Source: Octopus vulgaris | Lineage: Eukaryota | Direction of reading: 5' to 3' | DNA: 64,000 nucleotides | Assembly: GCA_951406725.2 (NCBI GenBank) | Contig: OX597820.1 | Span: forward strand, 16,678,001-16,742,000 | In this document: one piece after another, positions 14,870 through 54,310 of the stretch | Position numbering within the stretch: the stretch's first letter is position 1 | Layout: every line of letters begins with the position of its first letter | Program-made: the position numbers and the translations under genes | Notes under the pieces: model-generated | What the model was told of the DNA's origin: nothing | Database searches by the model: none | The model's input: the letters and a program-made list of their open reading frames with translations, nothing else

Positions 14870-14958
14870 TCTCTGACGAGTGGATGTATTACCTAATAAT
14901 GATTATCAATTCTGGATTTCATTTCGAAGCGTACAACATTCATGAAACGATCGTAAGA
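14870..14958 (+). ncRNA. Type I hammerhead ribozyme motif
   Basis: TCT-CTGACGA-GTGGATGT...ACATTCAT-GAAAC-GATC-GTA-AGA: 8-bp stem II (2 GU), palindromic stem III ACGATCGT, GUA site, only 3-bp stem I. Confidence 0.55.
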
Positions 14959-16084
14959 TATCTCAAACCTTTTAAAATAATGATACTTTATATATTTATC
15001 TATTAATACAATATTATTTATATGATGGACGTATATCTTCTGTGATTTTTTGATGTAATTTTTCCTGCTTTTACTTTCTAATATGTAATCGCTCTAATTG
15101 AATCTCCAAATACCTTCAAGGTTTTAGACATTTCTCATGCCAAGAGCACTTATCTCAAATCCAGTACACTTTATTCTCAAAGAATATATTTGATTAACTA
15201 CACACACACACACGCACACACACACACACACACACACACACACACACACACACACACACACACACACACACACACACACGCACACACACACGTACACGCA
15301 TATGACGAGCTTCTTTCAGTTTCCGTCTTGTAATCCATTTGCGAGGCTTTGGTCGGCCCAAGGATATAGTAGAAGACCTTTGCTCTTGGTGCCACACAGT
15401 GGAACTGACCTCGGAACCATGTGGCTGGAAACTTCTTACTACAAAGTCACGACTGCGCTTGTGTGTGTATGTGTGTGTGTGTGCGTGCGTGCGTGCGTGC
15501 ATGTGTGTGTGTATGTATGTATGTATGTATATATGTATGTATGCATATCATGATATTGGTCAGACTATCGGGTGTTGTTACACACCGCTGGTCACAATAC
15601 GCTTCGCATTGCTTAACCTTTCGAATGATGCCACCCCGCTTGCTAGGTGGTTAGGTCAACATTTGTTCCTCCATTACATTCCTTCTCGGAAGACGTAAGC
15701 TCCAAGAAGCTGAGCTTTTCATACTTCATTCTTAACACCAGTGCTACCACCATCGAAAGGGGTAGCATTGGTGTTAAGGGCGGAGTATGAATACATAATT
15801 CCATCCCCCCCCGGAGCTTCCACCTTCCACCCCCACCCTAACCCCAAAGAAATACGGAATACCAATCCACCACAGGCTTAACATATATACAGTTAAGTGG
15901 ACTGGAGCAGCATAAAATAAAATGTTTTACACATCGCGAAGCCTGTCTGGGAATAGAAACCTCAACCTCACGATCATGAATATTTCAAAAGAAAAACTGA
16001 CTTGGTTTAAAATCTAATGATCGGAAACGAGTAAGTCTGAATATTGGCAAACTGAATTTTCAGTTACACTATTTTATATAAGTA

Positions 16085-16360
16085 ACAATTAGCCCAGTAA
16101 TTAGGGCAGCGGACTCGCGGTTTCGATTCCCAGACCGAGCGTTGTGAGTGTTTTATTGAACGAAAACACCTTAAGCTCCACGAAGCTTCGGCAGGGGGTG
16201 GTGGCAAACCCTGCTGTACTCTTTCATCACAACTTTCTCTCACTCTTTCTTCCTGTTTCTGTTGTACCTGTATTTCAAAGGGGCCAGCCTTGTCACATTC
16301 TGTGTCACGCTGAATCTCCCTGAGAACTACGTTTAGGGGTACATGTGTCTGTGGACTGCG
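16085..16360 (+). mobile_element. SINE family C variant (tRNA-derived)
   Basis: Matches the intact copy at 57287-57662. Confidence 0.8.
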
Positions 16361-16694
16361 ACATGATTTCTTTGTTTTTACAGAGTATGTCCTGTATATG
16401 ATAGTTCCCTCCTTGGTTGCTTTTAAAACTTCTTTGGGAAGGAACACCTTTACATCGCACCCCTGCCAAAGAAGCATGTTCTTATATTTGCCTATTTCTG
16501 CTAATTCAATTTCGTTGCAATGGCTCTTGGCCACTGCCGCAAAGTTACCTCGACAAATATCAGAAATTCCTCCTCGGAAGGTGGAAGCTCCGGGTGGATT
16601 GAATGATGTATTCATACTCCGCCCTTAACACCAATGCTACCCCTTTTGAAGGTGGTAGCACTGGTGTTAAGAGTGGAGTATGAAAAGCACAGTT

Positions 16695-17572
16695 TCGAAA
16701 GGCGTAGTATTTGTGTTAAGGACGGAGTATGAATGCATCATTCCATCCCCCCGGAGCTTCCGCCTTCCGAGGAGGAATTTCTGAGATTTGTGAATGTAAT
16801 TTTGCGGCAGTGGCCAAGAGCCATAGCAACGTCTTCCGAGAAGGAATTTCTGAGGTTTGTGAATGTAATGGAGGAACAAATGATGGAGAATAAAAGAAAT
16901 TCTGCGGCAGTAGCCAAGAGCCATAGCAACGAAACTGAATTATCAGAAATAAGCAAATATATGAACATGCTTTGTTGGTAGCGGTGCGATGTAAATGTGT
17001 CCCCCCCCCCCCAAAAGACGTTTTAAAAGCAACCAATCATCATATACAGGACAAACTCTGTAAAAACAAAGAAAATAGAAATCTTGTCGCTGCAAGTCGA
17101 AAAAGCTTCAAAACCAATCTGGCAAGAGATTTCTTACCTTGCCGGAGGAAGGAGGTTTGGAAAGGTGGAGGTGCAGTTCGGTGAGGTAGCTACTGCCAGG
17201 CTACACTCGGCAACGTCCTTAAAGACAGGAGAAGTGGTACTACTACCCATAGACCTTGGGAGGCGTGCTTCTAGGATTAGGGTAGAAGATATACCTACTG
17301 TGTTTGATGTAGCTTGGCTAGTAGCTGCCGTACTGTTGAGCAATGAAGAAAAGACAGTGGTCCTCCTGGCCACAAGAACGGCGTACAAGAACTGGCAAGA
17401 GCAGAGCCTAGACATGATAATCTAGGTGGCCCCAGGGGACCTCGAAAGCATAGTGGAGACCATCACCATAGAAGATGTGACACTCAGGGTAAGAGTGGAG
17501 GGCAGGACCACGCGATGCTACAAATGTGGCCTGAAAGGCCACATTAGAGCGGACTGTCCTCTGCTGCCCGTA
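16695..17572 (+). pseudogene. Decayed LINE ORF1/gag-like protein with CCHC zinc knuckle
   Basis: Fragmented ORFs 16733, 17084, 17426 end in CYKCGLKGHIRADC (CX2CX4HX4C); 5' part duplicated in inverted orientation at 16366-16645. Confidence 0.65.
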
Positions 17573-17780
17573 AAGACCATCTACTTCAATTATTGCTTCC
17601 CAATTGCTTGGCAGACTGTCAGACCATCATCTAAAGATTTTAAAGTTAAATATTGTTTTTGTTAAAATTTGTTGAAAACAAGCCGCAATAATTATGCACC
17701 AACTCAATACACACACACACACACACACACACACACACACACACACACACACACACACACACACACACACACACACACAC

Positions 17781-17920
17781 AGAGTTTACGAAAAAAAAAC
17801 AAAAGACGAAGACACGTTGTGTACAAAACAAACAGATGTATTAGTATAACGCTCAGGAATAGATAAAAAGTCTTTTACGTTTCGAGCCTACGCTCTTCTA
17901 CAGAAAGAGACACAGAAATA
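17781..17920 (-). mobile_element. PLE-like terminal segment with hammerhead-like motif
   Basis: Minus strand TCTTT-CTGTAGAA-GAGC-GTAG-GCTC-GAAAC-GTA-AAAGA; family also at 12277-12416, 12785-12922, 25320-25440, 27255-27463. Confidence 0.65.
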
Positions 17921-51519: not shown

Positions 51520-52207
51520 CGGAAGTATAGATAGGCAGATAGGAAGTATAGATAGACAAATAGAGAGACAGATAGATAGATAAATAGACTGATAGATAGA
51601 CAAATAGAGATAGATAGATAGATAGATAGATAGATAGATAGATAGATAGACAAATAGAGAGACAGATAGATAGATAAATAGACTGATAGATAGACAAATA
51701 GATAGATAGATAGATAGATAGGTAGACAGATAGATAGACAGATAGATAGACAAATAGAGAGACAGATAGATAGACAGATTAGATAGATAGACAGTAAGAT
51801 AGATAGATAAAGAGATAGACAGACAGACAGACAGATAGATAGATAAATAGATAGATAGATAGATAGATAGACAAATAGAGAGACAGTTAGATTGGTATAT
51901 ATATAGATAGATAGACAGATAGACAGACAGGTAGATAGATAGATAAATAGATAGATAGATAGATAGATAGATAGATAGACAGACAGAGATAGATAAATAG
52001 ATAGATAGATAGATAGACAGACAGACAGAGATAGATAAATAGATAGATAGATAGATAGATAGATAGATAGATAGATAGATAGATAGATAGATAGATAGAT
52101 AGATAGACAGACAGAGATAGATAAATAGATAGATAGATAGATAGATAGATAGATAGATAGACAGACAGAGATAGATAAATAGATAGATAGATAGATAGAT
52201 AGATAGA
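51520..52207. repeat. (GATA)n/(GACA)n microsatellite
   Basis: Direct inspection. Confidence 0.95.
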
Positions 52208-52532
52208 GGTCTTTCACTTAAACACAAAGGTGAAAGCGGGAAAATGAATAAAAACCCAAAGAACCCCGTACCAATAACGAAAATAATCTAAAATCGAAAA
52301 GTCAGGCATATCTGTATCACCGTGATTTCGAACTTTGAGAAATACCCTTAGATCCCCTTTAGCGTGTTTTGACTGGCTGTCAATAAGACTCGCTGAAGAG
52401 GAACTAAGCTTAGGCCTCCAACCAGGCCTTTCGCAACACTCTTAAAGCCAAGAACTTTTCAGCACTCTCTTGTGTATGTGTGTGTGTGTGTGTATGTACA
52501 CACACACACACACACACACACACACACACACA

Positions 52533-52748
52533 CGAGGGGGTACTGAGAAATTCCTGGCTTTAAGGGTGTTGCGAAAAACCTGGTTGGGGGTCCAAACTTC
52601 CGCCTTCTTTTAAAGGGTTTAGAAAAACGAAAGGACCGATGCAATAAGTGTTTGAATCAGAGAGAATATGTTGAACAAAATCATAATTAACTGACTCTCA
52701 TGTATTTTGTTTTTCCCAACGCCAGAATCTTTTCAGCAACCCACCTCG
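52533..52748 (+). mobile_element. Mariner MITE (same family as 7212-7410)
   Basis: CGAGGGGGTACTGAGAAATTCCTGGC ... TTTTCAGCAACCCACCTCG. Confidence 0.7.
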
Positions 52749-52852
52749 TGTATACAGTGTACCCATAAAGTCATGCCAGTTATATCAATAAATAGCTTTG
52801 AAATCCCACCATGACTTTACGGACTAGGTATACATAATACATATATACATAC

Positions 52853-53228
52853 TGGGATAGAGAAGAGAAACTGTGCCCAATTGTGGAATGTTGACATAAA
52901 GCTGAAATCAGTGAGAAAGAGAACACCTACGCCGAACTATTGAGAAATCTGCAGTTACTCTATCTAGATTACAAGTTCAGGTTTATACCTGTAATCATTG
53001 GGACCCTGTGATATGTAATGCACTGCCTAGATACCAATCTTAAGACATTAGGCTTCTCGAAACCACAAAAGAGAAAGCTAATTCGAAGACTACAGATCCA
53101 ATCCATCATTGGAACTATAAAAGTCTGTAAAACTTTTCAGAAGTTTATCATTTAAATATATATGAGCACGTCTAGATATGTAACTATATGCATGAGAATA
53201 CGTACATAAAACAAAATATACAAATCTG
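52853..53228 (+). pseudogene. 3' end of an RLE-type (R4/Dong/NeSL-like) non-LTR retrotransposon
   Basis: WDREEKLC..VE ... KISEKENTYAELLRNLQLLY.DYKFRFIPVIIG ... KTFQKFII* (stop 53153-53155), then (TACA)n. Confidence 0.7.
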
Positions 53229-54310
53229 CTCACATCCATCCATCCATCCATCCATCCATCAATACATACATGCATACATACATACATACATGCATGCATA
53301 CATACATACATACATACATGCATACATACATACATATATACATACACACATACATACATACATACATACATACATACATACACACACACACACACATACA
53401 TACATACATACACACACACACACACATACATACATACACACACACACACATACATACATACACACACACACATACATACATACATACATACGTACTCTGG
53501 GATATCCCAGAAACAGCTGTAAGGCTTTGAATTTTTCCAGTAATAATAACTTATATGACTTGAGATGTTTGTCTTGCCTTAACGTTTATTGTCCTCTTTA
53601 CCAATTATATATCCGTTATATCGGAATTCTACAATGGTTCCATAACTCCTGTCTCGGCTATAACCTTGGAACCCCAGTAATCCGTTACAGCACTTACCTA
53701 GCATAGCTAGTCTAGTCGTTTAGATCCCCTATGAACTAAACCCCATATTTTGTACGTATATATATATATATATATATATATATATATGTATATATATGTA
53801 TAAATATATATATATATATATATATATATATATATATATATATATATATATGTGTGTGTGTGTGTGTGTGTGTATATATGTATTATATATATATATATAT
53901 ATATATATATATATATATATATATGTATATATATATATATATATATATATATATATATATATATATATATATATATATACATATATATACATATATATAT
54001 ATATATACATATATATATATATATACATATATTATGTGAAATAGAAAGATGAATAATCTTGTAGCAGATTAATCAAAAGTTTAACCGATACCTTGGTAGC
54101 AAAAATCACAGCAGAAGACAGCACGGTTGGAGGTACAACCATATGGTGTTGCAACCGTGCGTTGGTGCGGATAATTGAAATTAAAATATTGAACACCAAT
54201 AATATATATACATATATATATATATATATATATATATATATATATATATATATATATATACACACACACACATACATATACATATATATATATATACATA
54301 TATATATGTA

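Follow-up and report, generated by a model that had tools for sequence, protein, structure and literature searches.

Hammerhead-shaped motifs at the 3′ ends of several octopus repeat families, most likely Penelope-like elements and non-coding tandem offshoots

A stretch of 64,000 nucleotides (nt) from Octopus vulgaris (assembly GCA_951406725.2, contig OX597820.1; G000:C7:16678001-16742000, hereafter the window) contains several motifs with the core of a hammerhead ribozyme, which raises the question of what these motifs are, how they came to crowd together and whether they are likely to cleave. A previous reading made from the letters alone had described them as five or more independent families of type I hammerheads with palindromic stem III, inserted at microsatellites and mobilized by enzymes of Penelope-like elements (PLEs). 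We followed up this sequence-only reading in the window and in the whole 2.8-Gb assembly (227 contigs). We identify the motifs, with good confidence, as RNA elements of type I hammerhead shape that lie at the 3′ ends of several repeat families. These families are most likely PLEs (Hydra and Neptune) and their tandem derivatives without coding capacity (retrozymes), and weak self-cleavage of the motifs is predicted, either as pairs joined by stem III or aided by protein.

Hammerhead motifs of the window and their families

All motifs named in the sequence-only reading were found in the window, with the stem III segments it had given. The core C3 positions are 14873 (+) and 19957, 26384, 26841, 30168 and 32989 (all −), with partial halves at 43008 (−) and 53510 (+); the earlier coordinates pointed to the right motifs, although those on the minus strand mark the low ends of the motifs and not C3. 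The motifs were counted with a strict type I descriptor (CTGANGA, stem II of at least 2 bp, GAAA, symmetric stem III, UH and stem I of at least 3 bp), using 200 local dinucleotide shuffles of the window as the control, as that reading had proposed. Five strict matches were observed against a shuffle mean of 0.045 (maximum 1), at 14873, 19957, 26384, 26841 and 11044. A looser descriptor gave six matches (mean 0.135, maximum 2), and the loosest, requiring core and palindrome only, gave ten (mean 2.07, maximum 7). The copy at 14873 has just three contiguous stem I pairs. The copy at 30168 passes the loose descriptor only and that at 32989 only the loosest, with its background of about two; both fail the strict test because stem II has decayed. 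The majority sequences of all three families do fold. Besides 11044 (−), the sites previously overlooked are 26942 (+, A15.1 to U), 20759 (+, truncated), 48269 (+) and five copies of a family with a U6 core, here called family F. Further CTGANGA sites near microsatellites, at 13059 (−), 44350 (−), 52393 (+), 30438 (+) and 39633 (+), may be decayed hammerheads of other families.

The window is rich in microsatellites (148 tandem-repeat rows; 14,015 bases masked), and the proposed microsatellite-flanked insertion sites were borne out: a microsatellite lies within 270 nt downstream at 13 of 14 window sites compared to 40% of random positions, with a cut-off picked after the data had been inspected. 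Rfam gave no match at the gathering score in ten loci, and on the window no hammerhead was present among the 150 of 325 matches listed, which were microsatellite-driven microRNA and small nucleolar RNA matches.

Eight sites were used as DNA queries against the octopus genome, with 40 candidates scored per search and 15–25 loci returned per family analyzed; these loci are the best matches and the sample is thus biased towards close copies. All seven sites named in the sequence-only reading are members of genome-wide repeat families. The first-look candidates, which are not copy numbers, came to 2,328 for family A, 321 for B, 2,520 for C, 310 for D, 101 for E, 745 for H43, 2,637 for G53 and 1,728 for I (Table 1). 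The stems are kept in the family consensus: in all eight majority sequences, stem I comprises 3–7 bp, domain II closes at the core and stem III is symmetric. Domain II measures 12–64 nt, with fold z-scores of −1.3 to −7.5 against base shuffles. The three helices occur in type I order, with stem III formed between two copies only; the stem III segments of 8–12 nt have predicted self-duplex energies of −6 to −11 kcal/mol, and none forms a hairpin alone. Stem III was indeed palindromic in the majority sequences of the families at the named sites, except that ATCACAGGTGAT is an imperfect palindrome because of its G-G centre.

The canonical type I core (C3-U4-G5-A6-N7-G8-A9, G12-A13-A14, A15.1-U16.1, H17) is found in the majority sequences of A, B, C, D, E, H43 and I, and is intact in 41 of 47 copies of A, 22 of 27 of C, 10 of 16 of H43 and 15 of 17 of I. 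It was not found in the majority of G53 (C4) or in F (U6 in 21 of 24 incidentally met copies); by their sequences these two are hammerhead-like in geometry, yet core variants. Of 17 G53 copies, 8 read CCGAUGA and 5 read CUGAUGA; if CpG decay lies behind the difference, C4 would be ancestral.

As to the independence of the families, 45 pairwise comparisons revealed a clear relationship for B and H43 alone (local alignment z 6.8), the next highest being D and F (z 3.9). Several families are thus independent as claimed, but the motif at 43008 is related to that at 14873 and does not count separately. The partial 3′ halves at 43008 and 53510 are likewise real, but represent 5′-truncated copies whose relatives carry whole hammerheads. 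The claim of covariation-like evidence did not hold, as contrasting unrelated families is not covariation; within homologues it comes down to one pair in one family. Among 24 distinct rows of family A, 96% of cells pair, and pair 10.1–11.1 is G-C in 14 and A-U in 10. In the alignment this change separates two subfamilies, and it is read as one inherited event.

The large population that had been anticipated was recovered for the ACGU class, the class covered by our pattern: CTGANGA-N8-38-GAAACGTH has 22,735 genome matches against 2,544 for the reversed control, a 9-fold excess. About half of the first 100 matches listed come from a further, highly abundant family of minimal hammerheads with canonical core, in which AGGCTGG...CAGCC GAAACGTT comes after the core; it is not represented among the core sites of the window.

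Coding links, insertion anatomy and tandem units

The association with PLEs was supported by three families (C, I and F) that continue upstream into PLE GIY-YIG coding sequence. The PLE enzyme fragments expected in the window were also found, namely the C-terminus of a family C endonuclease and a reverse transcriptase (RT) thumb fragment. The most complete picture of family C comes from locus L121, encoding an RT, a frameshift, the thumb and a GIY-YIG domain without internal CxxC, followed 290 nt later by the hammerhead and by an inverted copy. Marks of the Hydra clade are seen in L121, L050 and L054: DKT, a C-terminal GIY-YIG without CCHH, and CxxC and CxH around a conserved E and N. The RT is 35–44% identical to four database proteins, three of which (P0003, P0004 and P0006) have a CxC...C linker; a homologue search with the family C endonuclease region returned nothing. 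The CxCX5C linker is absent in family C, and in a relative in L166, which makes family C a Hydra-like variant. In the region concerned (L121:6572-8029 for C, L166:2-1345 for the relative), C has an asparagine-rich insert, and its copies still end in (TA)n. Family C thereby offers a natural test of the linker-targeting idea, since the zinc finger of the linker, the proposed determinant of (TA)n targeting, is lost and the targeting itself is kept.

In family I, a GIY-YIG without internal CxxC lies about 1.4 kb upstream of the hammerhead in both arms of L179, and a CxCX5C linker about 1.8 kb upstream in the same locus; the RT is not securely linked to the family. Judged by these motifs, families C and I (19957 and 11044) are 3′ ends of Hydra-clade PLEs. 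In family B, a single locus (L033) carries a degenerate GIY-YIG of Hydra-like type at a distance of 550 nt upstream, with 300 nt in between that are unmatched in other B copies. For H43 and G53, 15 search loci each yielded no linked PLE coding sequence. In family F, 5 of 30 loci have a GIY-YIG with a CX4CxxC linker and an internal CxxC approximately 720–880 nt upstream; two of these loci, L201 and L202, overlap in the genome. The Neptune marks (CX2-5CxxC linker, CxxC inside a C-terminal GIY-YIG) are present in the L201 translation, while Pfam gave a weak GIY-YIG match in L202 (E 0.0012) and none in L201. By the same kind of comparison, family F is a Neptune-type PLE 3′ end.

The insertions share a common anatomy. 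A microsatellite, mostly of TA type, is found within 520 nt downstream of the motif in 30/39 copies of A, 26/27 of B, 28/33 of C, 20/28 of D, 18/25 of E, 14/19 of H43, 25/27 of G53 and 22/23 of I; a TA-type run was noted for 24 of the 33 C copies and 22 of the 23 I copies. Two preferred distances between motif and microsatellite, 110–160 nt apart, are seen per family in A, B, C, G53 and I. Insertions of family A stop at one of two points of the unit, 175 or 291, and a short end is combined with a long one in 10 of the 11 inverted loci that were scored; this two-ended, inverted anatomy matches the tail and inverted copies known from PLEs. The window insertion of family A has (TA)n at both ends, with arms stopping at the same two unit positions, and the family B copy is preceded by (TAC)n, with (AC)n at 15200. 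Short 3′ fragments retaining the hammerhead thus build up in microsatellites, which accounts for the crowding of motifs.

Families A, D and E consist of tandem units of 457–476, 286–306 and 477–536 nt, respectively, each with one type I hammerhead, and the longest stop-free frame in D and E is 52–78 amino acids (aa). An exact 23-nt pattern from the body of family A has 189 genome matches and none in the control. From this arrangement, A, D and E are most likely retrozymes, that is, non-coding tandem units. The 457-nt unit of family A with its full PLE insertion signature constitutes direct genomic support for animal retrozymes using PLE enzymes. Long open reading frames (ORFs) beside family A copies in L016, L017, L126 and L127 were considered as unit parts and rejected, being RVT_1 neighbors of the long interspersed nuclear element (LINE) type placed tail to tail with the insertions across (TA)n (e.g. 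L126:7436-9553 and L127:822-5470).

Family F and the question of cleavage

Family F is the commonest family found. Its five window copies read CTG-T-N-GA-A, 4-bp stem II, GAAA-CG-T-H and 5-bp stem I; one of the five has C6 and two have a decayed stem III. The register is fixed by canonical A6 sisters sharing the stem II of F, and reading the copy at 25341 as CTGAAGA was ruled out, as this breaks stem II; the correct register lies three bases upstream. A 35-place F pattern has 12,683 exact genome matches and none in the reversed control, and among 100 of these matches listed, position 6 is T in 98 and A in 0. A generic pattern with any base but A at position 6 gave 31,446 matches against 5,140 in the control, and approximately 85 of 100 matches listed were F with U6, as counted by eye. 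The excess over control is thus about 26,300 for non-A6 and about 20,200 for A6 motifs of the ACGU class, and standard CUGANGA descriptors would overlook more than half of the motifs counted in this class.

Twenty-four F copies were met incidentally, each with at most 7 mismatches to the motif. Of these, 21 have U at position 6, 2 have A and 1 has C. For a tree of 34 rows from F and its sisters, rooted at the midpoint, positions 6 and 7 were excluded, as were rows flanked by microsatellites; it contains a branch with 100/100 support parting 22 U6 and 3 A6 rows from 9 A6 rows. Three changes at position 6 are needed, consistent with one gain of U6 and two reversions, and the tree suggests that U6 arose once, ahead of the radiation of family F. 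Thirty of 39 rows from F and its sisters, distant ones included, contain a conserved GAGCG within 45 nt downstream, about 20–30 nt past the predicted cut (e.g. at 27385–27392 in the window). In predicted folds it competes with stem II to a variable degree, its potential partners being the 3′ strand of that stem and a CGCT located upstream; it is a possible switch or distal stem I.

As F retains the whole fold with U at position 6, cleavage is likely to be slow or conditional. Either its core is active and so far undescribed, or the fold of the hammerhead has been retained without cleavage. We tentatively propose, as a possibility short of a probability, that CUG-U-N-GA, carried by the commonest motif of hammerhead type found in the genome, is a natural variant of the core so far undescribed, which originated once in a lineage of Neptune PLEs and multiplied to tens of thousands of copies; all other catalytic positions would be under selection, activity would be conditional (dependent on protein or Mn2+) and perhaps gated by GAGCG displacing stem II, and the variant would be invisible to CUGANGA censuses. 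No U6 core was found in the literature searched, a weak negative given that subscription papers, Repbase and Dfam lay outside that search. Because A6 sisters and revertants share the sequence context of this natural U6 lineage, one cleavage series could tell a new active core from a non-catalytic fold. F also bears on why PLEs keep hammerheads, a question that PMC8557442 and PMC11167929 describe as unresolved.

For the families as a whole, we propose that a PLE enzyme would cut (TA)n and prime reverse transcription at one of two internal sites 110–160 nt apart, on both target strands, yielding 5′-truncated and often inverted insertions that nearly always retain the hammerhead. Two internal RT start sites and double-strand priming are reported for an anole PLE. 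Cleavage would take place in a dimer through the palindromic stem III, or with the protein of the element, and the hammerheads of tandem units would release unit-length, possibly circular, RNA. The RNA released from A, D and E units may borrow the Hydra-type enzyme for mobilization in trans; with neither a coding partner nor homology to C, I and B, the driver of these families is deduced from anatomy alone.

Several observations weigh against this interpretation. Many copies have decayed in the older families, with an intact canonical core in 18 of 27 copies of B, 20 of 30 of D, 13 of 29 of E and 5 of 17 of G53, and RNAalifold gave little or no structure on the alignments of these four. The clade calls are motif comparisons made by eye with the text and alignment of PMC8557442. 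Neither the PLE RT nor the endonuclease of family C was named by Pfam, which did name GIY-YIG in one homologue. A, D, E, H43 and G53 yielded no coding partner, and A, D and E have no homology to C, I and B (z below 2), including no shared 3′ end. Activity reported in the literature is low: of nine frog retrozyme dimers, one was cleaved in vitro, and for an anole PLE, inactivation of the hammerhead left insertion normal, its cleavage being protein-dependent and dispensable in vitro.

The anole result also favors an alternative that we regard as rather unlikely but worth retaining, in which the motifs are PLE 3′ ends as described and the hammerhead fold serves as a structural or protein-binding signal near the start of reverse transcription, with cleavage dispensable; F would then have lost efficient catalysis and spread nonetheless. 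The at least 12,683 exact copies of F, the position of U6 at the base of the F radiation (100/100 branch) and the prevalence of U4C in G53 (8 versus 5 of 17) fit this explanation, as does the natural A6C variant, for which a rate below 0.1 per min (PMC3088659) and poor activity in Mg2+ (PMC7151607) are reported. Against a non-catalytic F stands its pattern of conservation, which fits selection on catalysis: in the 24 copies, preselected at no more than 7 mismatches, the catalytic positions other than 6 are near-invariant and only N7 and H17, which are free in active hammerheads, vary (H17 being G in one copy), and column conservation is 94% in the motif compared to 69% and 80% in the flanks.

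It is considerably less probable that A, D and E are satellite-like repeats born of a PLE end and spread by DNA-level duplication instead of RNA mobilization. Their tandem, non-coding nature and the missing partner ORF would agree with this, and local amplification of PLE ends is discussed in a preprint (10.64898/2026.07.22.740005), but the copies are dispersed over many contigs as 1–2.5 units with random 5′ truncation, often inverted and with two fixed ends in (TA)n, which is the anatomy of PLE retrotransposition. We give virtually no credence to chance matches in AT-rich, repeat-rich DNA, for although shuffled sequence matches the loosest descriptor about twice (maximum 7) and the strict one excludes two of the named copies in the window, the strict count, the geometry-keeping family behind every named site and the 9-fold genome-wide excess all contradict it. 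PLE 3′ ends and their tandem offshoots, predicted to cleave weakly, therefore remain our preferred interpretation.

Features of the window and comparison with known systems

Table 1 Positions of hammerhead motifs and associated element parts in the window
Feature	Position	Strand	Remarks
Family I type I hammerhead	10960..11050	−	C3 11044, predicted cut after 10966; 60-nt domain II; stem III ACAATTGT; putative 3′ end of Hydra-type PLE
Family I insertion, inverted 5′-truncated second arm	11171..11388	+	Longer 3′ tail ending in (TA)n
Family B hammerhead	14870..14958	+	C3 14873, predicted cut after 14955; 64-nt domain II; stem III ACGATCGT; stem I weak
Family C hammerhead	19881..19962	−	C3 19957, predicted cut after 19886; 53-nt domain II; stem III ACATATGT; continues into (AT)n at 19835
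Family C inverted arm	20208..20779	+	GIY-YIG endonuclease C-terminal part (20208-20471), 3′ untranslated region (UTR), truncated hammerhead at 20759
Family A insertion	26227..27232	−	Partial tandem of non-coding 457-nt unit; hammerheads C3 26841 and 26384 (−); inverted arm C3 26942 (+), A15.1 to U
Family D hammerhead	30130..30172	−	C3 30168; stem III AATCGATT; diverged copy, stem II decayed; non-coding ~300-nt tandem unit
Family E hammerhead	32939..32994	−	C3 32989; stem III ATCGAT; partly decayed copy of non-coding ~480-nt tandem unit
Family E inverted fragment	33233-33405		
Family H43 hammerhead 3′ half	42992..43040	−	Relative of B; 5′-truncated copy adjoining SINE-like repeat
Family G53 hammerhead 3′ half	53496..53525	+	Stem III ACAGCTGT; 5′-truncated copy; family majority core CCGAUGA (U4C)
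Family F minimal hammerhead, U6 core	17871..17908	−	C3 17903, predicted cut after 17876; 4-bp stem II; stem III ACGU; putative 3′ end of Neptune-type PLE
Family F copy, U6 core	27336..27373	+	C3 27341
Family F copy, C at position 6	25333..25370	+	C3 25338
Family F copy, U6 core, stem III decayed	12794..12831	+	Inverted partner of 12368-12405 copy
Family F copy, U6 core, stem III decayed	12368..12405	−	
Minimal hammerhead candidate	48262..48308	+	C3 48269; stem III ACAT, non-palindromic in window copy
Degenerate Hydra-like PLE RT-thumb fragment	7445..7939	−	E 1e-4; no linked hammerhead found

The 48269 candidate is contained in an inverted pair (47373–47679 on the minus and 48036–48339 on the plus strand) flanking (ATCC)n. 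Positions 42232–42737 comprise two tandem copies of a 257-nt repeat, which we take to resemble a tRNA-derived short interspersed nuclear element (SINE). Fragments at 1902–2225 and 55584–56006 (−) resemble the helix-turn-helix (HTH) of mariner-type transposases, and the ORF of a related locus matched Pfam HTH_48. An internally repeated, partly inverted element occupies 16064–17425, with ORFs of 130–186 aa that gave no Pfam match. A poly-glutamine exon at 3760–4125 (+) ends in a stop codon and is probably the last coding exon of a host gene, for which no homologue was found; an idea of intron strand bias was dropped, as the only exon seen ends in its stop at 4125.

The collection of hammerheads itself extends a known pattern by more families and one more genome, and the arrangement is already in print. 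Craig et al. 2021 (PMC8557442) list Hydra hammerheads with a self-complementary stem III of 3–4 bp (File S2) and (TA)n targets (File S1), including Hydra-1_Obim from Octopus bimaculoides. The window families resemble the Hydra-clade PLEs described there in the C-terminal GIY-YIG without internal CxxC, DKT, the C-terminal CxxC and CxH, the (TA)n targets, the 3′ type I hammerhead with a self-complementary stem III of this kind and the inverted 5′-truncated copies. They differ in sequence from the listed Hydra-1_Obim hammerhead, in domain II (53–64 nt in B, C, H43 and I compared to approximately 10–24 nt in the listed Hydra hammerheads) and in their tails (110–160 nt compared to the 30–40 bp quoted). 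Family C moreover lacks the linker cysteines of the clade, and the 3′ UTR of family I extends over about 1.4 kb.

The minimal PLE hammerheads of metazoans (Cervera and De la Peña 2014, PMC4209133) share CUGANGA with an extra base, G10.1-C11.1 and a palindromic ACGU with the motifs described here, and likewise comprise many sequence-diverse families with thousands of copies per genome and opposite-strand pairs, for which a dimer model was put forward; weak cleavage of PLE hammerhead dimers is in print. No cephalopod row was found in the part of its supplement consulted, and the core variant reported in that study is U3-A8, unlike the U6 of family F. In the accessible text of the O. vulgaris repeat annotation (PMC13282606), the words hammerhead, ribozyme and retrozyme do not occur.

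Families A, D and E are comparable to the animal non-long-terminal-repeat (non-LTR) retrozymes (Cervera and De la Peña 2020, PMC7229834; Li et al. 2026, 10.64898/2026.07.22.740005), in which units a few hundred nt long, likewise non-coding and in tandem, each contain one type I hammerhead and for which PLE mobilization has been proposed. In contrast to the published retrozymes, A, D and E carry long palindromes in the style of Hydra, family A displays inversion, two fixed termini and (TA)n, and all three are known from genomic DNA alone. The closest parallel to family F is the Bcep176 phage hammerhead (PMC3088659; PMC7151607), which also has a natural change at core position 6. The phage hammerhead is a single sequence with C6, measured as slow and Mn2+-preferring, whereas F has U6, is a predicted motif and is present in tens of thousands of copies in an animal genome.

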